DNA of 64,000 nt from assembly GCA_018664825.1 (NCBI GenBank), contig JABJNO010000006.1, positions 15,157 through 79,156 on the forward strand, read 5' to 3'. The translations under genes were made by a program, and so were the position numbers. This DNA comes from Candidatus Parcubacteria bacterium (GTDB taxonomy: Bacteria > Patescibacteriota > Patescibacteriia > UBA1558 > GWA2-36-10). Shown in pieces: positions 1-54,066 of this stretch; within the stretch, counting starts at the first letter, position 1, and each line of letters starts with the position of its first letter. The notes beneath the pieces are model-generated. The model was not told the DNA's origin and searched no databases. It saw nothing but the letters and a program-made list of their open reading frames with translations.

Positions 1-597
1 ACTGCTGTAGCTGCCGGTCGTAAGGAAGCCGCTTCTGCCAATCAGGCAGAGATGGTAGCCCAAGCTGCTGGTAAGCAGGCCGATCTGCTGGCCGATGCTG
101 CTGGTGTCGAAGCTGCTGGTAAAGCTGTCGGTGCGGCCATTCTGGCCAAGCTGGGTGCTGAAGCTGATGGCGCAGACAAGAAGAACAAGGCTCTGGCCAA
201 CCTGTCCGATGGTGCCAAGCTGATCATGGTCTTGGAGAAGCTGCCGACTATCATCGAAGAGATCGGTGAAGCTGGCGAACGCGTCGTGGGTTCGGCCTTT
301 GAGCATGTTGGCTCTGGCCTGGCTGGTATCGATGGCGTCAAGATCGTGGACTTCGGTGGTGGCGGTGGTAACGGTTCCGCTGTTGCCGATCATGCTCTGA
401 ATATCCCCCGAATCGTCTTCAAGACGATGGCGGGATTGAAGGAACTGGGCATCAACCCTGAAGATCTGTTCTCCAAGCTGGGCATCGATATGTCCCAGGT
501 GGAAAACATTCTCAGTGGTGCTCTTACGACCAACAAAGATGTGACTCCTGCTCCCGAGCAGGAGACCGAGACCGAGACCGCTCCGGTCGAAGCTTAG
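1..597 (+). CDS. Flotillin-like (SPFH/band-7, YqiK/FloT-type) protein, C-terminal fragment. The ORF is open from nt 1, so it is 5'-partial.
   Basis: Frame 1 is open from position 1 to a TAG at 595-597. Ala/Glu-rich coiled-coil tail followed by the segment LIMVLEKLPTIIEEIGEAGERVV...GGGGGNG...LNIPRIVFKTMAGLKELGI. This resembles flotillin C-termini (compare E. coli YqiK ...LLEKLPEIA...GGNGG...). GC about 60%, unlike most of the window. Confidence 0.5.
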   Translation, partial: TAVAAGRKEAASANQAEMVAQAAGKQADLLADAAGVEAAGKAVGAAILAKLGAEADGADKKNKALANLSDGAKLIMVLEKLPTIIEEIGEAGERVVGSAFEHVGSGLAGIDGVKIVDFGGGGGNGSAVADHALNIPRIVFKTMAGLKELGINPEDLFSKLGIDMSQVENILSGALTTNKDVTPAPEQETETETAPVEA

Positions 598-675
598 TCC
601 AAGCTGGACTATATCCGTAAGGGAGTTGGTCTCCAGACCAACTCCCTCACTCAATCCTCCAGCAAGGAGTAAGTC

Positions 676-1473
676 ATGAGAGAACGTGAATCTGGTCGTC
701 GTGGTCTACGCGACAATGATCGTGGAAGCGATCGACGTCGTAATGATCACACCGACGATCCTCCTCCTCCCCGTGAGGAAGTGGATACGCATCATGAGGA
801 GCGTAGAACCACTACTGCTCCCCGCCGAAACACTGAATCCGAAAGGGTCACTCCTCCGCCAACTGAGCGCGTTGCTCCAGTTGCAGCAAAAGTTGCTGAG
901 GAAGAGCCGACCAATTCTGTCATCAGTGCTGATGAACTGGCTCGCAACGGCTATACCAGTGAAGCTCCCTGGGAAAATCTTCCCGCGGACGTCGTGGTAA
1001 TCTGCTGTAGCGATCAGCGATTTGGTCGTCAAAACCGTGAATTCCTGCGAGCCCTGGGTTTCCAGAGTCCGCATTTCATCCAGATTCCTTCGGGACTGGC
1101 TGTATTCCACGGTCTGGCCGCGGTAAGTGGATTTTTGCCCAAAGGCATGAATCTTCTGCTCGATAAGGCGATCGATCTGACTGGCGTCAAAGACGTCATC
1201 TGTATCGCTCACCATGACTGTGGTGGCTACAAAGCTGGTCGCTTCGAAGTGATCGGCAAGCTGACTCGCCGTCTGGCTGGCATGGACATCCAAGATGTCC
1301 AGACCGAACAGCTCCACAGAGCTGCTCGTGACGTCCAACTCAGAATGGGCAATGACACGACTGTTCGTGCATTCTACTCCGACGTAGTCGGAAACGAAGG
1401 CGACCAGCAGGTCAAGTTCAGCGAAATTGATCTGATTCAGCGTAGTCTACGCAAAAAGCGCAAGGCAAGCTAA
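676..1473 (+). CDS. Beta-carbonic-anhydrase-like protein with an Arg/Asp/Pro-rich disordered N-terminal extension
   Basis: The two beta-CA zinc-ligand and dyad motifs are in the right order and spacing: VVICCSDQRF (C-x-D-x-R) and ICIAHHDCGGYKAG (H-x-x-C-G). The first 90 aa are low complexity (RRGLRDNDRGSDRRRND, PPPPREE). GC-rich. The internal ORFs 686..1000 and 706..1338 are antisense or out of frame and are ignored. Confidence 0.4.
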   Translation: MRERESGRRGLRDNDRGSDRRRNDHTDDPPPPREEVDTHHEERRTTTAPRRNTESERVTPPPTERVAPVAAKVAEEEPTNSVISADELARNGYTSEAPWENLPADVVVICCSDQRFGRQNREFLRALGFQSPHFIQIPSGLAVFHGLAAVSGFLPKGMNLLLDKAIDLTGVKDVICIAHHDCGGYKAGRFEVIGKLTRRLAGMDIQDVQTEQLHRAARDVQLRMGNDTTVRAFYSDVVGNEGDQQVKFSEIDLIQRSLRKKRKAS

Positions 1474-1506
1474 GTCAATCAAGTTTCTTGAAAAAGCAAC
1501 AACAAA

Positions 1507-4299: not shown

Positions 4300-5061
4300 T
4301 TAGCTGTGTGGCAAAATAATACCGACAAAATACATCAGTAATACTCCTACTACTAGCCAAATTGAATGAGAAATAATATTTTTCTTGTTTTCTCCATGAT
4401 GAAGCTCTGGAATCAAATCAGCAGTAGCCAAGTATATAAAATTACCAGCTGCAAAAGCCAAAACGAGTGGAATAATATTTTGCAAAGTACTACCAAAATA
4501 ATAAAATAATAAAGCTCCAAGCACAGCTATCAGGGCTGTCACTAGATTATAAAAAATTGCCTTAGCCTTTGATAATCCTGCATAAAGTAAGACTCCAAAA
4601 TCAGAAATTTCTTGGGGTATCTCATGAAGTACTACCGCCAAAGTGACCATCAGGCCAGCATGAAAATCTATCAAAAAAGCAGAGGCTATCAAAGCACCGT
4701 CAACAAAATTGTGAATACCATCACCCACCAAGTTGATAAGGGCCAAATTCTTTTTATCTTTTGTGTTTGGCTTGCCGTGATCCTCACAATGACAATGATG
4801 CCAGTGAAATACTCTTTCTAATAAAAAGAAAAATACAATACTAACAAGTACAACCATCATGATTTGATGAACATCGTAAATTTCTGCCTCAATGGCCTCG
4901 GGCAACATATCCAAAAGAGAAACAGAAAGTAGTGCTCCAGCTGCCACAGAAATCAAGGCTTTGAGAAAACTCTTTTTATTGTCTTTTTTGAAAATGACTA
5001 AAATCCCTACCAATGAGATAAGGCTGACAAAAATTGTAGCTAACAAAATGTTTAATAACAT
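4300..5061 (-). CDS. zupT: ZIP family zinc/iron permease
   Basis: Eight predicted TM helices. His-rich loop HWHHCHCEDHG. Conserved HNFVDGALIASAF and LHEIPQEISDFGVLL (ZIP HExPxE signature). Confidence 0.8.
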   Translation of the reverse strand: MLLNILLATIFVSLISLVGILVIFKKDNKKSFLKALISVAAGALLSVSLLDMLPEAIEAEIYDVHQIMMVVLVSIVFFFLLERVFHWHHCHCEDHGKPNTKDKKNLALINLVGDGIHNFVDGALIASAFLIDFHAGLMVTLAVVLHEIPQEISDFGVLLYAGLSKAKAIFYNLVTALIAVLGALLFYYFGSTLQNIIPLVLAFAAGNFIYLATADLIPELHHGENKKNIISHSIWLVVGVLLMYFVGIILPHS

Positions 5062-5088
5062 GAACTATCTTATCTTAATAATAACTTG

Positions 5089-5127
5089 GCCCAGGCCACC
5101 CTCTCTGGCTCCGCCACTCACCTTGCC
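5089..5127 (-). promoter_or_regulatory. GC-rich structured 5' leader element, copy 1, upstream of zupT
   Basis: ggcccaggccaccctctctggctccgccactcaccttgc. This is an about 39-nt GC-rich island in AT-rich DNA, between the extended -10 and the start codon. It is nearly identical at 6744-6782. It contains the ggcca-ccctctc-tggcc hairpin. Confidence 0.45.
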
Positions 5128-5175
5128 TTTATTATATCAAAAAACCCCGCCAGAAGCGAGGTTTGAATATTTTCA
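5128..5175 (-). terminator. Terminator-promoter cassette copy 1 (hairpin CCTCGCTTCTGGCGGGG + T6 + TGATATAAT)
   Basis: Minus strand: aaacctcgcttctggcggggttttttgatataat. A nearly identical cassette lies at about 9241-9290 and 11803-11870, with a related one at 10176-10262. Confidence 0.55.
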
Positions 5176-5185
5176 TTGCCTATAA

Positions 5186-5437
5186 TCAAGTATTGCTATT
5201 TTTTTCTTTCTCTATAGCCTCTTCGATAAGCTTAATTTTATCTATCCACTCTTGTGGTGCGCTTCCTTTTGTTTCTTCTCTTACTATTTTTGCAGCTTGA
5301 AGTGATCCATTTTTATTTCTCAGCCATTTCAAATACCCACCTCCTGAATATTTGGTCCTGTTGATTTCTAAGGTTTCAGGTGTAATTTCATCAAATTTAT
5401 CTTCGTCGCTTTTGAATAATGATTTAAAAAAATTCAT
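5186..5437 (-). CDS. Small conserved hypothetical protein (about 83 aa), copy 1 of a duplicated gene
   Basis: MNFFKSLFKSDEDKFDEITPETLEINRTKYSGGGYLKWLRNKNGSLQAAKIVREETKGSAPQEWIDKIKLIEEAIEKEKNSNT. About 90% DNA identity to 9297..9548, including its downstream terminator. The start is taken at the Met conserved in both copies; the track start is 5467. Confidence 0.6.
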   Translation of the reverse strand: MNFFKSLFKSDEDKFDEITPETLEINRTKYSGGGYLKWLRNKNGSLQAAKIVREETKGSAPQEWIDKIKLIEEAIEKEKNSNT

Positions 5438-5442
5438 ATTTT

Positions 5443-6156
5443 TTATTTTAATATTGTACCTCCCCACTCTACAACAGCAAAACCTTCTCTGTTGAATGTT
5501 TCTATTGTTTGTGGTTGCAACTCTACCATTTCATCCAATGATTTAAATACTACAAAAACACGCAAAACTGAATCCGGCTTAGGATCTATATCCAATTCTG
5601 CTCTGTCATGATATTCCTCCTTAGTAGCAAAATGAACTAAATTATATTTATTATTCAATAATTGTGGTAACCAATAAACAATAAATTCATTATACTCTTT
5701 TGGAGTTAGGCCGATTTCAGCTAACTTTTCTTGTAGAAAAAATACTGTTTCCTCTCCACTCACAACAAAGCCCGTAGACAAATCATAGTCCACATCTTTG
5801 TTGGATTCTCCCTCCCAAAAAAGATAACTATATTCTCTGTTGTCTTTTAGGTTGATGATTTTACTATCTGGATAAGCAAAGACATTCCAACCATTTTCAT
5901 ATTCTGGATATGTAACTGTAAAAGTGCCCTGATAATTTAGTTGAACATCAATATTTTGAGCTTGAGTTGGATAAAGATAAATAACCGGCTTCCACTCATC
6001 ATAAGGGCCTCCCGGAGGCGAAGATGGTGGCGTAGTTGAGCTCACCTCTTGGACTGGTGGGCTTATCGGCTCTATGTTTTCTGGTTCACTTGTATCTGTT
6101 GTACAAGCTGCACCCATCAGTAATGGAATGATTAAAACTAATAATAATTTTTTCAT
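5443..6156 (-). CDS. Putative lipoprotein
   Basis: Likely start MKKLLLVLIIPLLMGAAC with a lipobox-like LMGAAC. The mature part is Pro/Ser-rich and then globular. This start avoids overlap with the upstream NYN gene. Confidence 0.45.
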   Translation of the reverse strand: MKKLLLVLIIPLLMGAACTTDTSEPENIEPISPPVQEVSSTTPPSSPPGGPYDEWKPVIYLYPTQAQNIDVQLNYQGTFTVTYPEYENGWNVFAYPDSKIINLKDNREYSYLFWEGESNKDVDYDLSTGFVVSGEETVFFLQEKLAEIGLTPKEYNEFIVYWLPQLLNNKYNLVHFATKEEYHDRAELDIDPKPDSVLRVFVVFKSLDEMVELQPQTIETFNREGFAVVEWGGTILK

Positions 6157-6178
6157 GATTTTATTTTGAAAACACCTT

Positions 6179-6724
6179 TTATTTTTTATTAATATATTTC
6201 CTAGGAGCTTTATATACAAACCAGTCTTCTTTGGTTATCTCATAAAAATAATCCGCTTCTTCAACTAATATTCTTGCTGCAGTTTTCTTTACGGCTGCTA
6301 TTTCTACTCTGACTCCCTCACCCTTCAGATGAGACACCAGATCTACATAATCAGAATCTCCAGACATTATTATGATAGTATCAACTTTTGAAGCAAGCTG
6401 TGTAGCTTTGATAGTCAAAGGTATATCTGCTGATTTATGACATGGTATCACTGACCCATAATAATTTTCATGTAACCTTTCTGCAAATTTGGATGAGATG
6501 GATTTCCCTTCACGAAAATATAACAACCTATTCAAACCCCTGCCATTCAATAATTTTGGAATAACTTTATCAAAATCAATCATTGCGCTTTTATTTTTAG
6601 AAACATCGTGAATACTTCTCTCGATATTATTTCCATCACAAAGTATGGCCACAGATTGGTTTATGACCTGTTGTCTTACTTCTGGAATTAAATCGTTGGA
6701 TACTTGATTATTTTTTATCATCAT
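6179..6724 (-). CDS. NYN/LabA-like (DUF88-type) PIN-fold domain protein
   Basis: VAILCDGNNIERS ... IIIMSGDSDYVDLVSHLKGEGVRVEIAAV pattern, typical of LabA/NYN domains. Confidence 0.5.
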   Translation of the reverse strand: MMIKNNQVSNDLIPEVRQQVINQSVAILCDGNNIERSIHDVSKNKSAMIDFDKVIPKLLNGRGLNRLLYFREGKSISSKFAERLHENYYGSVIPCHKSADIPLTIKATQLASKVDTIIIMSGDSDYVDLVSHLKGEGVRVEIAAVKKTAARILVEEADYFYEITKEDWFVYKAPRKYINKK

Positions 6725-6743
6725 AATATTTATTTAATAACAT

Positions 6744-6782
6744 GGCCCAGGCCACCCTCTCTGGCCTTGCCATTCACCTTGC
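6744..6782 (-). promoter_or_regulatory. GC-rich structured 5' leader element, copy 2, upstream of the NYN gene
   Basis: ggcccaggccaccctctctggccttgccattcaccttgc. It is followed on the plus-strand side by the T-tract/TATATCA promoter motif, the same arrangement as copy 1. Confidence 0.45.
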
Positions 6783-6861
6783 GTTCAGTATATCAAAAAA
6801 CCATCCTAAGCGATAGCCGAATGGATGATTCTTTGATTGGTCTCATATAGACGCAAATATA

Positions 6862-8268
6862 TTACCCACCAATACCTTGTCCTTCATAAAGAATTGTACC
6901 AATATCATCTCGTAATATATGGACCTCATACCAAAGGTCGTCTGTGTTTTCAATAGAAAAAAGCGCCTTCCAATACCAATCACCTTCATTTGAACCAGTT
7001 TCTACAGAATATTCAATATCACCCAAATTTTCATATTTGTTAATAAAATCTGCCAATACCTTACTTTTTCTTCTGGCCCAAATTGTAGCATCGGTTGAAT
7101 TATTTATTGGTAAAACAATTTCCTTGGGATACAAATCATGGCATTCATAAAAATCAACTTCCGCATCACGGCAATCATCATAGGTTGTATCTGTTTCTGT
7201 TATTTTTCCATTGTCATATATATACGCTCCATACTCATTCGTTGTGTTCCTTTTTATCTTTACAACATAACAATTTACACAATCCAATGACTCAGCTGAA
7301 AGTATAGTAGCATCACCGGTCCATCCTAAGTGCTCTGCTACAAATCTCAAAACATCCTTTGGCTCTTTTTTCCATGCACGTAAACATACCCGGGCTTCCT
7401 CGGTCCATCTATAGCCTGCCAAATAATCACATCCATATTTCTCATCATTGGATTTGCGTTCTTCTACTTTTACTTTTTGTTGAATTTTTTTGTAGCTACC
7501 ATAATATACAATACCAGCCTCTATTATCTGAATAACAAATAACATTAGGAAAAGAATAATCAATGCATTTATTACTTTTCGTCTACTTTTTGTAAGAATC
7601 GCAATTGTGCCAATGATCCAAATTAAATAAACCATTGTCTCAATCCAAGACCCAACCACTCTTTCTTCGGTACAATCATCACCACTAATCGGGCAAAGCA
7701 GAGTAAGTGGAGCATAAAAAATATTTAATACTGGGAGCTCATACAATCGTAATAATATATTCTTTTCTTCAGGCCAATAAATATCATTGGATCTTTTTAT
7801 GTGCCTTATATAATAATCATACATGTATTTTTTGTACACGCCTTCAGTGTCTGTGGCAAAATATTTTTTCTCCTCAAGATATTCATCAGAAGGATTACCA
7901 GATATTGTAACAAGGGGTACGGCATAAGGATCAAATACCATAATCTCTTCTCCTGCAGATAACTTTGGAGAATGTATGTCAGATTTGATTATAACATCTT
8001 TTGAATCAACGCTTGCAGTGTAAAAATCACCCAAGCCTCCTTCATATTTTTCGTCTTGCAAAACTTCCAGAATCTTCATTTCCTTGATATCCTCTTCTGG
8101 CGCATCATATACTATAGGAGTGATAATTAAAGGAAAAATAATAACAAGCAAAGTCAAAATCAAAATAATTATTTTTTTATTAAAAAATTTAAATTTATTA
8201 TTTTCCATTAGCTCCTCTTGAGGTGCTGGATTGTACTCTTGTTGAATTTTAAATTCTTGTTCTTCCAT
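6862..8268 (-). CDS. Membrane-anchored hypothetical protein, paralogous at its N-terminus to 12267..13802
   Basis: The likely start MEEQEFKIQQEYNPAPQEE matches MEEQNQNLEQEPQIQQEYKPVPQEG of the other gene. It is followed by one TM helix. There are two more TM helices mid-protein. Co-oriented 14 nt downstream of corA. Confidence 0.5.
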   Translation of the reverse strand: MEEQEFKIQQEYNPAPQEELMENNKFKFFNKKIIILILTLLVIIFPLIITPIVYDAPEEDIKEMKILEVLQDEKYEGGLGDFYTASVDSKDVIIKSDIHSPKLSAGEEIMVFDPYAVPLVTISGNPSDEYLEEKKYFATDTEGVYKKYMYDYYIRHIKRSNDIYWPEEKNILLRLYELPVLNIFYAPLTLLCPISGDDCTEERVVGSWIETMVYLIWIIGTIAILTKSRRKVINALIILFLMLFVIQIIEAGIVYYGSYKKIQQKVKVEERKSNDEKYGCDYLAGYRWTEEARVCLRAWKKEPKDVLRFVAEHLGWTGDATILSAESLDCVNCYVVKIKRNTTNEYGAYIYDNGKITETDTTYDDCRDAEVDFYECHDLYPKEIVLPINNSTDATIWARRKSKVLADFINKYENLGDIEYSVETGSNEGDWYWKALFSIENTDDLWYEVHILRDDIGTILYEGQGIGG

Positions 8269-9212: not shown

Positions 9213-9240
9213 GTTTATCTTTTTATTTTAATATTACTCT

Positions 9241-9292
9241 CAGTATATCAAAAAACCCCACCAGAAGCGAGGTTTAAATATTTTCATTGGCT
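9241..9292 (-). terminator. Terminator-promoter cassette copy 2
   Basis: Minus strand: aaacctcgcttctggtggggttttttgatatact. This is the same cassette as at 5128. Confidence 0.55.
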
Positions 9293-9296
9293 ATAA

Positions 9297-9548
9297 TCAA
9301 ATATTGTTATTTTTTTCTTTCTCTATAGCCTCTTCGATAAGTTTAATTTTATCTATCCACTCTTGTGGTGCGCTTCCCTTTGTTTCTTCCCTTATTATCT
9401 TTGCAGCTTGAAGTGGCCCATTTTTATTTTGCAGCCATTTCAAATATCCACCACCTGAATATTTAATCCTATTGATTTCTAATGTTTCTGGTGTAATTTC
9501 ATCAAACTTATCTTTGTCGCTTTTGAATAATGATTTAAAAATATTCAT
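9297..9548 (-). CDS. Small conserved hypothetical protein (about 83 aa), copy 2 of the duplicated gene
   Basis: MNIFKSLFKSDKDKFDEITPETLEINRIKYSGGGYLKWLQNKNGPLQAAKIIREETKGSAPQEWIDKIKLIEEAIEKEKNNNI. Duplicate of 5186..5437. Confidence 0.6.
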   Translation of the reverse strand: MNIFKSLFKSDKDKFDEITPETLEINRIKYSGGGYLKWLQNKNGPLQAAKIIREETKGSAPQEWIDKIKLIEEAIEKEKNNNI

Positions 9549-9737
9549 AATTTTATTTTGTCTTCCCAAATAATTTTAAAAGTATTTCTTCTGGACCAAG
9601 ATCATACCCAGAAAGTAGGCCCATTGATAGTAACAACAAAAATATTAAAATCAAAATAAGTATTATAATTAATATTTTCATAATCTAAATTTAATAAAAA
9701 TAATTAGAACATCTACCAGGTTCTATAAATTATTTTT

Positions 9738-11785: not shown

Positions 11786-11802
11786 GAAAATTGTATTATT
11801 AA

Positions 11803-11870
11803 TATAATTTGATTATATCAAAAAACCCCGCCAGAAGCGAGGTCAGAACTTTTTGTTATGAAAACCCTGT
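11803..11870 (-). terminator. Terminator-promoter cassette copy 3 (CCTCGCTTCTGGCGGGG + T6 + TGATATAAT)
   Basis: Minus strand: ...cataacaaaaagttctgacctcgcttctggcggggttttttgatataatcaaattat. Confidence 0.55.
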
Positions 11871-12046: not shown

Positions 12047-12122
12047 AATTTTAAAATTAAAAATAAACAACATCTTCATTATACCACAAAACAAAAAACG
12101 AGCTAAGGTTAGCTCACTTTTT

Positions 12123-12231
12123 GACCCCTCGACTCGTTACACTCGCTCAGGACAAGTTGGGTCTCTATCGTAGACCCTGAGCGATTAAAAGGAGTCGAAT
12201 GGGTCGTAGACCCTGAGCGAAGCCGAAGGGT
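12123..12231 (+). repeat. Cluster of three copies of the TGAGCG...TCGAA hairpin repeat: one inverted (12123-12156) and two direct (12173-12205 and 12210-12231)
   Basis: Inverted copy gacccctcgactcgttacactcgctcaggac. Direct copies gaccc-TGAGCGATTAAAAGGAGTCGAAT-gggtc and accc-TGAGCGAAGCCGAA-gggt. A GC-rich patch in an AT-rich spacer. Confidence 0.55.
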
Positions 12232-12266
12232 GGGGTCCTTACGGACCTTAGTTATAACTTAATTAT

Positions 12267-31320: not shown

Positions 31321-31352
31321 AAAAAGACCTCCCTTTGGAGGTCTTTTTTATT
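31321..31352 (+). terminator. Bidirectional intrinsic terminator between ahpC and the paralog array
   Basis: aaaaagacctccctttggaggtctttttta. A 9-bp stem flanked by A and T runs. Confidence 0.7.
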
Positions 31353-31944
31353 ATTCATATAATATTTTGTCTTTCAAGCCTCCTAGTCTTTTTATTCTAA
31401 AAGCTTCTTCCACCAAAGATGCATCTACATAAATATGACCATGCACAACCAAATCATCGGGCAACTCTTTTATCTTTGTTTTTTTCATATACAACACCCC
31501 TCCTACTTCCAGGCCTTTTGGCAGTTTTGTAATACCGTCATTGTCCAAGTATAGATCTCCTGTTGTAGTCAGATTGTCTGGTATTCTCGAATCAATATCT
31601 TCTGTATCTTTTAAATTTAAAAATCCCTGGACAGCTATTATTTTTATTTCTTCTCCATTTTTTATTCTAGTTTCAACTTTTACTTTTTCTCTAGGCTCAA
31701 CTTCTTCACCAATCTCCTTTGATTGAGCTATGACAGCCTCAACTGTAAACTTGTAGCCATTGATAACTCCTACTTCTTTTTTTAAAAAATCTAAACTTGG
31801 CTCCAACTGATGTTTTTTTAGTGACCTCAACAATCTAAAATCACAATCTTTTGAATCTGCCAAAAAATTGTTATCAAAATTTTGCTTACTTTCTTTGAGC
31901 TGAACAATTTCTCTTCTCAGGTTTTCACAATCTATTGCTTGCAT
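31351..31944 (-). CDS. LRR-like repeat protein, member 1 of a five-gene tandem paralog array (cytoplasmic, no signal peptide)
   Basis: C-terminal triple about-21-aa repeat IPDNLTTTGDLYL / ITKLPKGLEVGGVLYM / IKELPDDLVVHGHIYV. N-terminus MQAIDCENLR. DNA segments are shared with its neighbours. Confidence 0.55.
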   Translation of the reverse strand: MQAIDCENLRREIVQLKESKQNFDNNFLADSKDCDFRLLRSLKKHQLEPSLDFLKKEVGVINGYKFTVEAVIAQSKEIGEEVEPREKVKVETRIKNGEEIKIIAVQGFLNLKDTEDIDSRIPDNLTTTGDLYLDNDGITKLPKGLEVGGVLYMKKTKIKELPDDLVVHGHIYVDASLVEEAFRIKRLGGLKDKILYE

Positions 31945-31953
31945 AATTTTATC

Positions 31954-32529
31954 TTAATCTTCAAGGCCTACGTGTACTGAACCATATATGCCATTTATTC
32001 TAGTCACCTCATCCGTCAAAATGGGATCAATATAAATATCTCCATGTACTATCAAATCATCTGGTAGTTTTTTTATCTTGGTACGGTTGATATGCAGATT
32101 ACCTCCCACTACCAGTCCTCTTGGTAATTTTGTAATCTTTGTACCCTTAAAATTTAAATATTCTTTCACTTCTAAATTGTTGGGTATTTTTGAGTCTATA
32201 TCATTCATCATATCTAAGACTAATCCAATTTTTATGACAGTAATCTTTATACTAGCACCATCTCTATTTCTATACTTAAAATCTAATGACTTTTCTATAT
32301 CTCCTGGATTAAGCCTCATATCAATGGCCTCAATTGCAAACCTATACCCTTTAATAGCTTCCACTTCTGACCTCAAAGATTCTAAACGTTTTTCTAGGCT
32401 AGTTTTCCATAATCTGAGATCAACAAAATCCCACTTCTCTGAAGTGCCTCTACACCTTTCATCAAAACCATCTTTGTCCTCTTTGGTACGATGTATAAAT
32501 TTCCTCGTTTTTTCACAATCTATTGGCAT
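31954..32529 (-). CDS. LRR-like repeat protein, array member 2
   Basis: MPIDCEKTRK ... KEDKDGFD ... WDFVDLRLW ... KGYRF; C-terminus ITKLPRGLVVGGNLHINRTKIKKLPDDLIVHGDIYID. Confidence 0.55.
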   Translation of the reverse strand: MPIDCEKTRKFIHRTKEDKDGFDERCRGTSEKWDFVDLRLWKTSLEKRLESLRSEVEAIKGYRFAIEAIDMRLNPGDIEKSLDFKYRNRDGASIKITVIKIGLVLDMMNDIDSKIPNNLEVKEYLNFKGTKITKLPRGLVVGGNLHINRTKIKKLPDDLIVHGDIYIDPILTDEVTRINGIYGSVHVGLED

Positions 32530-32537
32530 GTTTTTAT

Positions 32538-33128
32538 TTATCCCATTAAATGTATATCTCCTCGTAAATTTCCTGCTTTACGTAATCGAACTACCTCGTC
32601 TCTCAAACTTTCGTCAAGATAAATATCTCCGTGAACCATCAAATCGTCTGGTAATTTTTTTATTTTGCTGTTATTGATATGCAGATTACCTCCCACTACC
32701 AAGCCTTTTGGTAATTCCGTAATATCTGAACCTTGTAAAAATATATTTTCCATCACAGTCATGTTTTCCGGTATTTTTCCATCCAAATTTTCTACTCTCT
32801 TTAAATTCAAAATATCTTTTACTACTATTGTTCTAATCTTTTCTCCACCCCTTAGCCCGCCCTCTACAAGTACTTTTTTTCTTGCTCCCTCAAAATCCTT
32901 GGGCTCACCTACACTAGCCATGACTACACTCACTATAAATTTATAACCTTTAACAAATTTTAACTCTCCCCTTAAAAAATCCAAACGCTGGCCCAGGGCA
33001 ATCCTCCATTGCCTCAAAGCAACGAAATCCCAATCGGCCACTTCACCAATACAAGATTTATCAAACCATCTTTTATCTTCCTTGGCGTGCTCTATGGTTA
33101 TTCTTATTTTTTCACAATCTATTATCAT
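32538..33128 (-). CDS. LRR-like repeat protein, array member 3
   Basis: MIIDCEKIRI ... KEDKRWFD ... WDFVALRQW ... KGYKF; C-terminus ITELPKGLVVGGNLHINNSKIKKLPDDLMVHGDIYLD. Identical 29-nt DNA stretch shared with member 2 (attgatatgcagattacctcccactacca). Confidence 0.55.
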   Translation of the reverse strand: MIIDCEKIRITIEHAKEDKRWFDKSCIGEVADWDFVALRQWRIALGQRLDFLRGELKFVKGYKFIVSVVMASVGEPKDFEGARKKVLVEGGLRGGEKIRTIVVKDILNLKRVENLDGKIPENMTVMENIFLQGSDITELPKGLVVGGNLHINNSKIKKLPDDLMVHGDIYLDESLRDEVVRLRKAGNLRGDIHLMG

Positions 33129-33130
33129 AT

Positions 33131-33721
33131 TTATGCTGCTACAAAGAGACTACGTATATTACCCTTTTTCTTTAGCTTGGTTATTTTATCTCCCAATAAA
33201 GGTAGTTGTTTTTGATTAATAACCAACTCTCCCTCAACTACAAGATCATCTGGAATATCCGTAATAAGAGTACCCCTAATATCCATATTACCACTTACTA
33301 GTAGATCACGAGGTATTTCTCTTACATTAAGATCTTTGATAAAAAAATTTCCATCTATTGTCCAGTCACCCGGAATCCTTACTGTCTTTTCACCAAATAT
33401 ATCTTTTCCGTTTTCTGTAAAATCCAAACCTCCTTTGTAGAGCATTCTTCCGTGTCTTTTAAATTCCATGAACTCTACCATAGATAAGAGATCTTCTCTA
33501 TCAGAACTTCTGATAAATTCCATCATATCAACCCCAATTACTTCTCCTTTGAGTTTTTCCAATGCTTCACTTATATTTATTTTTTTTTCTCTCAACTTGC
33601 CAAGATCCAAAGAATCATCGATAGCATCAAATTGATCCACAAAACCAGCAAAGGCTGGCTTTGTTACCTTTAGTAAATATCTCCATTGTTCACATTCTAC
33701 TTTGTTTTTATTTTTAAACAT
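33131..33721 (-). CDS. LRR-like repeat protein, array member 4 (divergent N-terminus)
   Basis: C-terminus IPGDWTIDGNFFIKDLNVREIPRDLLVSGNMDIRGTLITDIPDDLVVEGELVIN retains the repeat. Confidence 0.5.
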   Translation of the reverse strand: MFKNKNKVECEQWRYLLKVTKPAFAGFVDQFDAIDDSLDLGKLREKKINISEALEKLKGEVIGVDMMEFIRSSDREDLLSMVEFMEFKRHGRMLYKGGLDFTENGKDIFGEKTVRIPGDWTIDGNFFIKDLNVREIPRDLLVSGNMDIRGTLITDIPDDLVVEGELVINQKQLPLLGDKITKLKKKGNIRSLFVAA

Positions 33722-51987: not shown

Positions 51988-52213
51988 AAATAAACACATG
52001 AAAAAATATACACTTCCTATTATTATTTTTATTCTTGGCATCATCTCTTTTATTACCTTTGGCCTTATTGGTTCCGAAGTTTCAGAAGATGGGATGCTTA
52101 TAGAACAATTCGGACTTATACCTATTGGTTATTTATTGATAACTATCAGTATAATATGGAGCATAATTATTTTAATTATCCCCATGTTTCAAAAGACAAA
52201 TAAAAAACCCTAG
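51974..52213 (+). CDS. Small two-TM membrane protein
   Basis: 79 aa with two hydrophobic helices. Overlaps the upstream stop. Confidence 0.35.
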   Translation: MLTDKNKHMKKYTLPIIIFILGIISFITFGLIGSEVSEDGMLIEQFGLIPIGYLLITISIIWSIIILIIPMFQKTNKKP

Positions 52214-52229
52214 ATTAAAATCTAGGGTT
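52206..52229 (+). terminator. Bidirectional terminator (aaccctagatt-aa-aatctagggtt)
   Basis: Perfect 11-bp palindromic stem between convergent genes. Confidence 0.65.
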
Positions 52230-52236
52230 TTGTTTA

Positions 52237-52578
52237 TTAACAGGCTTTTTCCCTCTGCCACATGATAAAAAAATATGTGAGCATAAACAAAAAGAAACAG
52301 GGAAAAATAAAGCCAACTGCTGTGATTTTGGCAATGGCAAAATGAATCACCAGGTACAAGGCCGCTAATAAAATAGCCGCTCCCGACCAATTGATACGCT
52401 TGCCTATAATACCTCCAGCCACAATGCCAGCAATCAGCCCAAAGGCAAACCCTATCAAACAGCCCAAATAAGCTCTCTGCTGATCTTGCTCTCCTAGGGC
52501 TTCAACCCAAGAAAAAAAGAATCTTTGCACAATCAGACTAGCTGATGAGACCAAGATGATAGGAATCAGGTTACGCAT
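52237..52578 (-). CDS. Integral membrane protein (3-4 TM), hypothetical; strong SD
   Basis: aaaagggagataatcATG. A TTGACA -35 lies upstream. Confidence 0.45.
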   Translation of the reverse strand: MRNLIPIILVSSASLIVQRFFFSWVEALGEQDQQRAYLGCLIGFAFGLIAGIVAGGIIGKRINWSGAAILLAALYLVIHFAIAKITAVGFIFPCFFLFMLTYFFIMWQREKAC

Positions 52579-52695
52579 GATTATCTCCCTTTTTTAAAAG
52601 ATCAAAGTTTGAATTTAACGATTGATATTATTATATATAATCATCTTTGTCAATAAATAAACCCCCTAGATAAAAATATAGGGGGTTTTATAATA

Positions 52696-52775
52696 AGGGA
52701 GCAGGAACTCACCGGAAGAGCTAGGCTCCTCACGAACTCCGTAGAGCCCGCTGGGCGAGAGAGCCCCTACTCCAC
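52696..52775 (+). ncRNA. GC-rich highly structured element of about 80 nt (candidate small RNA or repeat); strand uncertain
   Basis: GGGAGCAGGAACUCACCGGAAGAGCUAGGCUCC forms nested helices (GGAGC/GCUCC and CUC/GAG around ACCGGAA). Then CUCCGUAGAG and GGGCGAGAGAGCCC hairpins. A long-range GGAGCAGG/CCUACUCC pairing is possible. About 65% GC in AT-rich surroundings. No family recognised. Confidence 0.25.
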
Positions 52776-52780
52776 ACTGA

Positions 52781-53149
52781 TTATTCTTTACTATCAGCCA
52801 AATTGACCTCAGGCCAACTCAAGACTTCTTCGGGAATTGGACTCCCCCCTTCTCTTGCTTGCCTAGCCAAAATCCGACGTAGATGAAAATTTTGGCAAGC
52901 TATCATATTGTGCATATGGCAAATATTGCTACTGCGAAAAACTCCCAAGATGCCAGGACAATCAGAATAATGTATCCGACCACTATTTTCACCTATGCGA
53001 AAAGGTGGAAAACTACCCAATGTCCACGTACCTCTTTCTTCATTTACTTTTACATTGCGCGGACACTTGCCAGTGACTTTGATTTCATTACCTTCTCTAA
53101 TTAGAAAAAGTAATCCTGACCATTTTTTTCTGGTTTTTTTCATAGTCAT
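52781..53149 (-). CDS. Cys/His-rich small protein, possible zinc-dependent nuclease-like (HNH/Vsr-like motif uncertain)
   Basis: SDCPGILGVFRSSNICHMHNMIACQNFHLRR. GC-richer. N-terminal basic segment. Confidence 0.3.
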   Translation of the reverse strand: MTMKKTRKKWSGLLFLIREGNEIKVTGKCPRNVKVNEERGTWTLGSFPPFRIGENSGRIHYSDCPGILGVFRSSNICHMHNMIACQNFHLRRILARQAREGGSPIPEEVLSWPEVNLADSKE

Positions 53150-53322
53150 CTTATACTCCTTATTTTGGGTTTAAAAGTACTATCTCAATAATCAAAAATT
53201 ACTACTTAACATAACAATTGTCAAATATCATTGACAAAATACCTTCAAAATACTAATATTTAGTGTAATTCACCTAGGTAAAAATCCTATAAAATGTACC
53301 CTAAAACAAAAGAGGTTTCCAA

Positions 53323-53703
53323 ATGAACAACAAAGTGCGCCGTTTTCTTTTGATCTTGTTATTGATCCTCATCTACATCCCTGTCCGTGGTATCGACAAC
53401 ATCAACGGTGATCTCCGATTTATAGGCTTCTGCCCCAACTGTACGGATTCCTATTATTGGAAAGAATCCAGCTCTCTGACTTATTGGAAAGCCGAAGATC
53501 AAACTTCGTTTGGCCACACATCCTCAGCAGTGATGATCTGTAAAAAATGTATGGATGACCCCGAGGGGCTGAGTCCCAACCGAATCGGCTTTATGCTCTG
53601 GTGGCCACTTGGAATAGGTGGCTGGGACAAAGAAGGCACAGACATGGTCAAGGATGCTGTACGTCAGTACAAACAAGGTGACGCAAGTCTTCGGTCAATC
53701 TAA
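53323..53703 (+). CDS. Secreted/membrane-anchored zinc-ribbon protein (CxxC...CxxC), hypothetical
   Basis: SD caaaagaggtttccaaATG. Motifs FCPNCTD and ICKKCMDDPEG. N-terminal hydrophobic helix. Confidence 0.4.
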   Translation: MNNKVRRFLLILLLILIYIPVRGIDNINGDLRFIGFCPNCTDSYYWKESSSLTYWKAEDQTSFGHTSSAVMICKKCMDDPEGLSPNRIGFMLWWPLGIGGWDKEGTDMVKDAVRQYKQGDASLRSI

Positions 53704-53750
53704 AGCCCAAAACAAACACACCGATTTCTCCCCAACCGAAAGGAAAGACT

Positions 53751-53993
53751 ATGTGGTTGATACGATTCAATCAATGGTACGACCAACTATCCCCCGATCC
53801 TCGTTTCATTTTATTCCTGCTCTTCATCGCCATAATCGGCATTGGGTCGATTAGCTTTGGTCTGAATCTCAATCAGCCCAAGCTAGCTCTATTTGGCACT
53901 GTCTGGATTGCCATCTTTGGTGGCCAAAGAGCGATTTACTTCCTTCTCAATCGAAGAGTTGTTCGTTCCAGAGTCCAAAAACCTAGAGGTTAA
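53751..53993 (+). CDS. Small two-TM membrane protein
   Basis: 80 aa. Followed by a terminator (ccctcg...cggggg + T-run). Confidence 0.35.
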   Translation: MWLIRFNQWYDQLSPDPRFILFLLFIAIIGIGSISFGLNLNQPKLALFGTVWIAIFGGQRAIYFLLNRRVVRSRVQKPRG

Positions 53994-54066
53994 ACCTCAC
54001 TCACCCTCGTTTTTTTAAACGGGGGTTTTATTTTACAAAAATATCTAAAAGGATTAAGATTATCTT

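Follow-up and report, generated by a model that had tools for sequence, protein, structure and literature searches.

The GC-rich unit in the zupT and NYN leaders

The stretch of DNA analyzed here, referred to as the window, comprises 64,000 nucleotides (nt) of a Candidatus Parcubacteria bacterium genome (assembly GCA_018664825.1, contig JABJNO010000006.1, positions 15,157 to 79,156 of the forward strand) and contains zupT, which codes for a ZIP-family zinc transporter, and a gene for an NYN-domain protein, both of which carry the same GC-rich element of 39 nt ahead of their start codons. All the genes around these two loci are located on the minus strand, and the element was therefore read on that strand. 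A preliminary description of this DNA had proposed that the element is a shared, possibly metal-responsive, cis-regulatory RNA or else a mobile leader module. The repeat itself proved to be real, since the pattern given in that description matches the window exactly twice without mismatches, at 5088-5126 and 6744-6782, whereas no match is expected in 100 shuffles; the second copy had been placed correctly and the first one a single base off (5089-5127). The identities given for the two downstream genes were confirmed by matches to PF02535 and PF01936.

The natural unit, as derived from the family and from covariance model R1, is listed in Table 1 as copy A (upstream of zupT; 58.8 bits, E 6e-20) and copy B (upstream of the NYN gene; 60.2 bits, E 1.8e-20), and no third copy was found in the window with this model. 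The two copies differ at 4 of the 39 positions, and their GC content is 69% and 64% compared to 36.7% in the window, so the GC-rich character claimed earlier stands, with slightly different figures (about 70% and 35% had been given). The same strain is represented on 17 contigs from several metagenomes, and neither copy is altered in the contigs that were read.

A T-run and an extended -10 box, TGnTATA(A/C)T, precede each copy, with a gap of 5 nt between the box and the unit. Each unit is followed by an A/U-rich spacer, 25 nt to the ATG at 5061 (ZIP) and 18 nt to the ATG at 6724 (NYN), and the element thus lies between the extended -10 promoter and the start codon in both leaders, as originally described. 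Transcription start sites were predicted from the -10 spacing, here as well as for all the other leader copies discussed below; judged by this spacing, the zupT and NYN mRNAs probably open with the unit as their initial 39 nt. The window copies are non-coding, and frame 1 of both runs into a stop codon before the gene is reached. As regards the host, the upstream regions of 51 open reading frames (ORFs) from the whole window contain essentially no Shine-Dalgarno sequences, and A/U-rich leaders of 15-25 nt follow the TGnTATAAT promoters.

Table 1. Positions of the two copies, their hairpins (H1, H2) and the adjacent host features in the window.
Feature	Position	Strand	Basis and remarks
Element copy A, 39 nt, CAAGGTGAGTGGCGGAGCCAGAGAGGGTGGCCTGGGCCA	5087..5125	-	Predicted 5' end of zupT transcript; covariance model R1
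H1 of copy A, TGGC-GGA-GCCA, with GCGGAGC = GCGNAGC mini-hairpin motif	5106..5116	-	Covariation, 75 distinct units; loop statistics
H2 of copy A, TGGC-CTGG-GCCA	5087..5098	-	3 of 4 pairs changed on both sides somewhere in the family
Element copy B, 39 nt, CAAGGTGAATGGCAAGGCCAGAGAGGGTGGCCTGGGCCA	6743..6781	-	Predicted 5' end of NYN transcript; covariance model R1
H1 of copy B, TGGC-AAG-GCCA	6762..6772	-	Covariation and covariance model
H2 of copy B, TGGC-CTGG-GCCA	6743..6754	-	Covariation and covariance model
zupT extended -10 promoter, TGATATAAT	5131..5139	-	Ends 5 nt ahead of copy A; host feature, outside the element
NYN extended -10 promoter, TGATATACT	6787..6795	-	Ends 5 nt ahead of copy B; the orthologous promoter of L144 is empty
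Intrinsic terminator of the upstream small ORF	5142..5164	-	Host feature; delimits the zupT transcription unit
zupT, ZIP family	4300..5061	-	PF02535, 2.6e-40; start codon 25 nt downstream of copy A
NYN-domain gene	6179..6724	-	PF01936, 1.5e-20; start codon 18 nt downstream of copy B

Consensus sequence and secondary structure

In the sense of the genes, the unit reads C-AAGGTGAA-(TGGC-loop-GCCA)-GAGAGGG-(TGGC-CTGG-GCCA), with CAAGGTGAA at its start and GGGCCA at its end. It is 39 nt long, or 45 nt with the first stem longer by 3 bp. The two bracketed segments, H1 and H2, are direct hairpins with the same TGGC/GCCA stem, and the first of them is the variable part of the family: it is TGGC-GAA-GCCA in the 39-nt form, and TGGCCGC-GCA-GCGGCCA (Haliea), TGGCTCC-GAA-GGAGCCA or TGCCAGC-GCA-GCTGGCA (Firmicutes) in the 45-nt form. 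No terminal inverted repeats are formed by the ends of the unit, CAAGG... and ...GGCCA.

Covariation was analyzed in a set of 75 distinct units, in which H1 corresponds to columns 10-16 paired with 20-26, and H2 to columns 34-37 paired with 42-45. H1 and H2 together were 95.9% paired, and 7 of the 11 pairs were changed on both sides (54 cells). None of 500 shuffles reached the observed values (one of 500 in the case of the count of double-changed pairs), and the slid controls collapsed. Compensatory changes are exemplified by GGC/GCC, GCC/GGC, GCT/AGC and GAC/GTC in H1, and by TGAC/GTCA and TAGC/GCTA in H2. Folded with DNA parameters, the consensus takes exactly the form H1 plus H2 at minimum energy, whereas RNA parameters give the 39-mer another fold.

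A different hairpin, ggcca-ccctctc-tggcc, had been suggested in the preliminary description, and this could not be sustained: GGCCA-N7-TGGCC is perfect in the NYN copy only, and no compensatory changes were found in the family. This hairpin (GCCA-GAGAGGG-TGGC) is thermodynamically favoured in copy B alone, through the particular loop of that copy. A variant with a nested outer stem was also tried and rejected, having no compensatory changes and performing no better than shuffles.

Loops of the form C-GNA-G (GAA, GCA, GGA or GTA) were observed in H1 at 97 of 125 sites, and include GCGAAGC, GCGCAGC, GCGGAGC and CCGAAGG. Sequences of the type GCGNAGC are known as "mini-hairpin DNA", which is extraordinarily stable as DNA and much less so as RNA, and the motif occurs at sites that are recognised in single-stranded DNA (PMC13037366). 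Copy A (GCGGAGC) fits this motif, whereas copy B, with the loop AAG, does not.

Several other candidate functions were considered for the consensus and rejected. A sigma-54 promoter on the plus strand has the wrong GG/GC spacing and orientation, as judged by eye; a K-turn, a bacterial SECIS element (with UGA in frame 2) and a BHB intron do not fit the consensus, by reasoning only. A leader peptide or upstream ORF starting from the ATG in ...GGTGAATGG was discarded as well, its frame not being conserved and the Shine-Dalgarno spacing being zero. Using Rfam 15 at gathering thresholds only tRNAs were found, and the region 4950-7000, searched at E values up to 10, gave nothing relevant, which agrees with the earlier statement that the element is not a recognised riboswitch.

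Distribution of the unit

Two collection scans were performed, in each of which the other half of the unit was left free: AAGGTGA-N6-16-CCAGAGAGGGTGG was searched over 185,579 species genomes and CAGAGAGGGTGGNCTGGGCCA over JGI metagenomes. The free half was nevertheless almost invariant in both scans. The covariance model gave 121 hits in 83 loci, and altogether about 125 distinct sites were collected, with the orthologous sites of related strains counted one by one.

Among metagenome-assembled genomes (MAGs) of Patescibacteria, at least nine copies were found in Komeilibacteria SI047_bin69 and five in H52-bin081_1, and SI048_bin106 is a carrier as well; the copy density is low, about one per 30-100 kb. 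Further carriers are low-GC MAGs labelled Gammaproteobacteria, Cycloclasticus, the isolate Mariprofundus sp. EBB-1, and Haliea, which has many copies. In the Lachnospiraceae, the unit is present in the isolates Lachnoclostridium sp. An14 and Alitiscatomonas aceti, in Enterocloster and in human-gut contigs. Near-identical units thus occur in at least three phyla, Patescibacteria, Pseudomonadota and Bacillota; some of the MAG labels may be wrong, and the support for this statement comes from Haliea (65% GC), from the genomes of isolates and from the Patescibacteria. No description of the unit was found in the literature, which was searched both by sequence and by concept.

Matches at the loci L011, L024, L026, L043 and L089 were set aside as chance matches of the collection scans, and so was a palindromic terminator family (L059, L063, L066, L067, L071, L081, L100 and L132). 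The latter loci, of a genome with 65% GC, contain an unrelated perfect palindrome, AAAACAGAGAGGGTGGCC-TGG-GCCACCCTCTCTGTTT, which has 21 nt in common with the unit; this was taken as chance, though the length of the match is notable.

Filled and empty sites

The comparison of filled sites with their empty counterparts revealed that the whole unit is inserted precisely, without target duplication. The clearest example is an ABC ATPase, P0121, which carries the unit and is 248 amino acids (aa) long, whereas its five closest relatives (P0122-P0126, 83-93% identity) are all 235 aa long and are aligned to it with a clean gap of 13 aa. At the DNA level, the empty sites (L142 and L143) read ...GACGGGGA|AACGGAA and the filled site (L017) ...GACGGCGA(39 nt)GACGGAA, the whole unit being placed between the second and the third base of a GAA codon with no target duplication.

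The unit is present in the NYN leader of the window and of L050 (84.7% protein identity), and missing from that of L144 (90.6%) and of L145-L147. In L144, the same promoter, GGTTTTTTGATATACT, and the same leader, TaCTATTAAATAAAAAT, abut exactly at the place of the unit. Such a patchy occupancy means either repeated insertion at one place or scarless loss. The unit is also absent upstream of four zupT orthologues (72-83% identity), where the intergenic gaps are 3-26 nt. The module upstream of corA in the window (9221-9284), which is paralogous to the zupT terminator-promoter region and 92% identical to it, has the -10 box followed by an ordinary leader without the unit.

The flanking sequences show a weak preference, with A at -1 in 55 of 62 sites, G at -2 in 28 and A at -4 in 44, so that the unit often follows ...AAGA, and the downstream sequences are A-rich.

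The neighbourhood of zupT differs between the window and its orthologous loci. At two of the latter (L138, 2587-2997, and L139, 2618-2992), a Fur-family gene, probably zur, ends 3-8 nt before zupT. In the window no Fur-family gene adjoins zupT, and a duplicated small-ORF module is found in its place. This module is part of a 300-nt direct repeat, 92% identical, located directly upstream of zupT and of corA (5133-5432 and 9244-9543), with a third, partial copy at 11791-11854. The repeat includes a small ORF of 90-93 aa without a Pfam hit (5186-5467 and 9297-9569), a terminator, ACCTCGCTTCTGG(C/T)GGGGTTTTTT, and a TGATATA(A/C)T promoter. In this manner, two cation transporters are each accompanied by a paralogous small protein, and the pairing may be a real functional link.

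Contexts of the copies

The following counts cover the low- and mid-GC loci, with ORFs of at least 100 codons taken as coding. The unit is read in frame 1 (KVNG-x-AREGGLG-Q/H) of ORFs at 53 sites and in frame 3 at none, although the latter is open as well; 2 sites are antisense in long ORFs. Read in frame 1, the unit gives a hydrophilic loop rich in glycine; frame 2 is interrupted by a stop codon, and tryptophan and proline abound in frame 3 and in the antisense frames. Nine sites, belonging to about seven independent genes, are located 5 nt past a -10 hexamer, and 16 sites are elsewhere, one of them between a stop codon and a terminator in the 3' untranslated region (UTR). Tandem arrays consist of two or three units.

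The host genes checked against Pfam include those for GyrA (with the unit ahead of the catalytic domain), a Mur ligase, a DUF1385 protein, a glycosyltransferase and an ABC exporter. In HsdR the copy is inside the HSDR_N domain; in a clpC-like Clp ATPase the unit is in the C-terminal tail, together with a second, decayed copy; and in LigA it is antisense, read as GPGHPLWLRHSPC, inside the HhH region. These genes keep their full sets of Pfam domains around the in-frame unit, and the unit is predicted to be translated. At least six N-terminal sites are at ATG + 9 nt exactly, and several N-terminal copies are placed precisely four codons past the ATG. The genes downstream of the leader copies (ZIP, NYN, PilT, a possible rhodanese-like protein and assorted membrane proteins) have no function in common.

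In four human-gut Lachnospiraceae loci (L064, L083, L102 and L123), ABC-transporter genes have 5-7 units and decayed units within about 14 kb, and these recur at two places, just past the start codon and in the ATPase loop that follows the F-x-Y strand. The unit in the Patescibacteria ABC ATPase (L017) is in the equivalent loop.

The preliminary description had regarded copies unrelated to gene starts as the mark of a neutral repeat. Such copies are indeed numerous, in ORFs, in the 3' UTR, in the loops of repetitive extragenic palindromes (REPs, see below) and in tandem arrays. Consequently, the proposed mobile leader module was right as far as mobility is concerned, but the unit is not specific to leaders.

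Haliea REP loops and the search for a proposed mobilising enzyme

In Haliea, GTAG-REP doublets carry the unit in one of their arms, within the loop; the empty arm reads cgcccgcGGAgcgggc and the filled one cgcccgcGGA(unit)gcgggc. The Haliea locus L015 (4640-5520; also L040 and L114) is a REPtron, i.e. a gene for a REP-associated tyrosine transposase (RAYT; Y1_Tnp, PF01797, 5e-9) between GTAG-REP doublets, and the 45-nt unit is present in the loop of one arm of every flanking doublet.

The low- and mid-GC loci, about 0.5 Mb in all, yielded no Y1 gene, and IS200/IS608 TnpA queries matched the Haliea RAYTs only. Two further candidates were tried and rejected: a full-length element with cargo between its halves, as orphan left or right halves were absent beyond decayed or tandem copies, and a common neighbour gene serving as mobilising enzyme, as none was found among the loci.

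Comparison with known systems

The closest likeness is to REPs and the bacterial interspersed mosaic elements (BIMEs), which are mobilised by RAYT, a Y1 enzyme of the HUH type. Both they and the unit are short (20-45 nt), GC-rich, hairpin-forming, devoid of coding capacity, dispersed, sometimes tandem, and occasionally located in genes (PMC3733652), and in Haliea the unit is physically inside the GTAG-REPs that flank a RAYT gene. A REP is defined, however, as a single imperfect palindrome with a GTAG (or CGTC) tag left unpaired at one of its ends (PMC3733652), whereas the unit has neither GTAG nor CGTC in its consensus, starts with CAAGGTGAA and consists of two direct hairpins. Additionally, the unit is low-copy and mostly intragenic or at the predicted first transcribed base (+1) instead of downstream of genes, and no RAYT was seen in the low-GC loci. 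REP families are largely species- or genus-specific, whereas the unit is near-identical across phyla.

The ends of IS200/IS605 elements and their ORF-less derivatives (PATEs) resemble the unit in that each end has a subterminal hairpin and that terminal inverted repeats and target duplication are lacking, and may also resemble it in their oriented insertion after a short preferred sequence; their precise loss has a plausible counterpart in the patchy NYN site. IS200/IS605 elements, IS608 and ISDra2 among them, move through a single-stranded DNA intermediate, and such an intermediate is assumed for the unit. For the unit, insertion with neither terminal inverted repeats nor duplication was observed at L017 compared to L142/L143, at the NYN site of the window compared to L144, and in the Haliea REP loops. 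On the other hand, the unit is far smaller than PATEs (39 nt), its target preference is weak (A at -1, AAGA common) with no fixed tetra- or pentanucleotide, its right end is the foot of H2, and 1 Mb of loci yielded no autonomous relative sharing its ends.

The Rickettsia palindromic elements are selfish palindromic repeats that occur in frame in functional protein genes and are presumably translated (cited in PMC3733652), which is similar to the coding copies. They are about 100-150 bp long, CGTC-tagged and restricted to Rickettsia, whereas the unit has 39 or 45 nt and is found in at least three phyla. MITEs (miniature transposable elements with inverted repeats), such as Correia/NEMIS, RUP and ERIC, are also small, non-autonomous, hairpin-forming and able to be co-transcribed, but they have terminal inverted repeats and target-site duplications, and the unit has neither. 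Small riboswitches (preQ1-I, guanidine-II) are comparable in size, and the two-hairpin layout, with two copies in leaders, is superficially like that of guanidine-II; the unit, however, is tied to no gene family, is not conserved in orthologous leaders, resides in ORFs and has no Rfam match.

Interpretation of the unit and alternative explanations

The comparisons above show the precise insertion of whole units without target duplication or terminal inverted repeats, the maintenance of two hairpins by compensatory changes, and the scattering of near-identical units over unrelated sites in at least three phyla. With some reservation, we favour the view that the element is a miniature, non-autonomous mobile (insertion) element that was probably moved as single-stranded DNA. 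The single-stranded form is suggested by the IS200/IS605-like hallmarks, the DNA-type mini-hairpin, the insertion into hairpin loops and the RAYT locus in one genus. The unit would be moved in trans, most likely by an HUH/Y1-type enzyme of the IS200/IS605 TnpA or RAYT kind, for which H1 and H2 would be the recognised features. Copies would survive where 39 additional bases do little harm: at the first transcribed base, in the first codons, in surface loops, linkers and C-terminal tails, in 3' UTRs and in REP loops. The coding survivors would be those that use the one benign frame, KVNGxAREGGLG. The regularity of the positions could be due either to the targeting of transiently single-stranded DNA, e.g. 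in an open promoter complex, or to survival at neutral sites only, and the present analysis does not separate these two options. As the host has no Shine-Dalgarno sequences and its leaders are only 15-25 nt long, +1 may be the one place where an insertion disturbs neither promoter nor leader. The copies in the window are accordingly seen as passengers that provide at most a generic 5' structure, and not as a zinc sensor or a device for co-regulation; nothing points to a zinc-related or shared regulatory role for them.

Several points weigh against the proposed mobile element. Y1 genes were found only in Haliea, as RAYTs, and the repeat cognate to these is the GTAG-REP around the unit, so that the unit may be a passenger there. 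The neighbourhoods of the three GC classes have no protein family in common beyond ABC transporters and the like, no autonomous, split or cargo-bearing version was seen in 1 Mb of loci, and no unit that might indicate a vector was found in the viral-contig, phage, plasmid or E. coli genome collections (the plasmids gave only chance matches of 20-30 nt). REP- or PATE-like repeats are not usually near-identical across phyla. In part the near-identity of the unit is a matter of ascertainment: both collection scans required 20-21 exact bases, so that decayed copies are under-sampled and conservation is overstated, although decayed copies of 18-47 bits were still picked up by the covariance model. 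Neither the DNA nor the RNA fold of the consensus is better than those of shuffles. Wobbles (about 31 G-T) are more frequent than A-C mismatches (about 10), which indicates that the sense strand folds but does not separate RNA from top-strand DNA. Finally, the orientation is strongly biased (53 sense to 2 antisense) and the places are exact (5 nt past the -10 box; often four codons past the ATG), and this bias and the exact +1 position could also be explained by a role at the RNA level or by an RNA-mediated origin.

An RNA-level role would mean that a mobile element has been co-opted as a generic 5'-proximal RNA element, whose Shine-Dalgarno-like AAGGUGA and GC hairpins alter mRNA stability or ribosome loading. 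The nine leader sites all lie exactly 5 nt past the -10 hexamer, the N-terminal sites are at a fixed distance from the ATG, nearly all copies are sense, the host essentially lacks Shine-Dalgarno sequences, and the unit stays intact while its flanks diverge (the NYN gene in two species; the ABC exporters of gut Lachnospiraceae). We nevertheless consider such a role unlikely, because many copies are mid-ORF, C-terminal, in the 3' UTR or in REP loops and the one in ligA is antisense, the closest orthologues of zupT and NYN lack the unit, and the leaders that follow the unit are ordinary. The RNA folds of copy A and of the consensus are no better than those of shuffles, and purifying selection explains the positions equally, since only insertion at +1 spares both the promoter and the leader. 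An RNA-mediated origin, in which a small structured RNA is joined to the 5' ends or cleavage sites of transcripts and copied back by a reverse transcriptase, appears improbable to us. The unit begins at the predicted +1 in all leader copies, is inserted with a sense bias and without target duplication, and its subfamilies differ in the length of a helix while the flanks do not vary, in the manner of a structured RNA gene. Yet neither Rfam comparison nor similarity in E. coli genomes gave a source RNA gene, the surroundings of the copies showed no reverse transcriptase, the C-G-closed GNA triloop is a stability motif of DNA and not of RNA, and the antisense in-frame ligA copy and the insertion in the loop of a DNA repeat beside a RAYT gene fit a DNA process better. 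An origin in a universal stable RNA (tmRNA PK1, the 16S 3' end, 23S H71) was rejected, as there was no blastn match in E. coli genomes, which hold all of these. The resemblance of these RNAs to the unit presumably amounts to 7-9 nt only.

The original proposal of a leader RNA, riboswitch or protein-binding, that co-regulates zupT and the NYN gene, possibly in response to metal, drew on the occurrence of one sequence at corresponding places in two leaders, including that of a zinc transporter, and on a GC content far above that of the surroundings. It is scarcely tenable: the unit is absent upstream of the zupT orthologues, two of which directly follow a Fur-family gene, and from the closest NYN orthologue; the paralogous promoter module of corA lacks it; about 125 other sites are in unrelated contexts including coding DNA, with no common function downstream; and the proposed hairpin has no compensatory changes or other covariation, nor is there an Rfam match up to E 10. 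We regard it as equally remote that selection acts on the peptide of 13-15 aa, KVNGxAREGGLG(Q/H), e.g. as a tag or linker. The use of a single frame by all 53 sense coding copies, with frame 3 open too, speaks for this idea. Against it, the double changes in the pairs of H1 lead to non-conservative replacements in the encoded peptide (G.A to A.G, A.S or D.V) and synonymous positions are frozen across genomes of 30% to 65% GC, and the constraint is therefore on the nucleic acid and not on the peptide; moreover, many copies are non-coding, including both copies in the window, and one is translated in an antisense frame.

To return to the proposed miniature mobile element, it is unusual in its size, in its near-identity across phyla, in its in-frame residence in essential genes and in its single-base precision at promoters, and is otherwise of the miniature hairpin-repeat kind. 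It is possible, although we are inclined to doubt it, that it represents an undescribed class: an ultra-small (39/45 nt), translatable mobile element, near-invariant across Patescibacteria, Pseudomonadota and Bacillota, which inserts and perhaps excises precisely without duplication, may target transiently single-stranded DNA (the +1 transcription bubble, hairpin loops, A-rich tracts), and whose enzyme may be outside the described transposase families. Such targeting would explain both the 5-nt rule of the leader copies and the filling of the NYN site in two non-sister lineages.

If the element is mobile as proposed, it would be among the smallest mobile DNA units known. Its near-identity in Patescibacteria, Gammaproteobacteria/Zetaproteobacteria and Lachnospiraceae would then imply a recent spread between phyla or a very tightly constrained recognition sequence, its tolerance in frame in essential genes (gyrA, ligA, Mur ligase, clp, ABC ATPases) would mean that a loop of 13-15 aa is added to proteins, and insertion at predicted transcription starts would be precise to a single base. 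For annotation, GC-rich "leader motifs" of unrelated genes in AT-rich genomes can be insertions and not regulators, and such insertions can be flagged with the covariance model. Cultured hosts exist, namely Lachnoclostridium sp. An14, Alitiscatomonas aceti and Mariprofundus sp. EBB-1.

Other features of the window

The first 1500 nt of the window (1-1500) have about 56% GC compared to about 36% in the rest and contain GC-rich ORFs on the plus strand (52-597 and 676-1473); this part may be foreign DNA or an assembly join. The orientation of the genes flips near 26-27 kb, where no dnaA or origin was found. A GC-rich intergenic island at 12120-12250, between two minus-strand genes, contains GTAGACCCTGAGCGA twice (12170 and 12206) along with a number of small hairpins, a GCGAAGC mini-hairpin among them, and has no Rfam match. 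The region 51990-54060, about 2 kb without a long ORF, has GC-rich patches at 52720-52782 and 53553-53590 and gave only sub-threshold Rfam matches (Yfr10, 33.5 bits compared to a gathering score of 43). On the minus strand at 31351-33721 there is a tandem series of four paralogous genes of about 191-197 aa, three of which have in common the repeat family D1, which is 63-75% identical over 186 nt.

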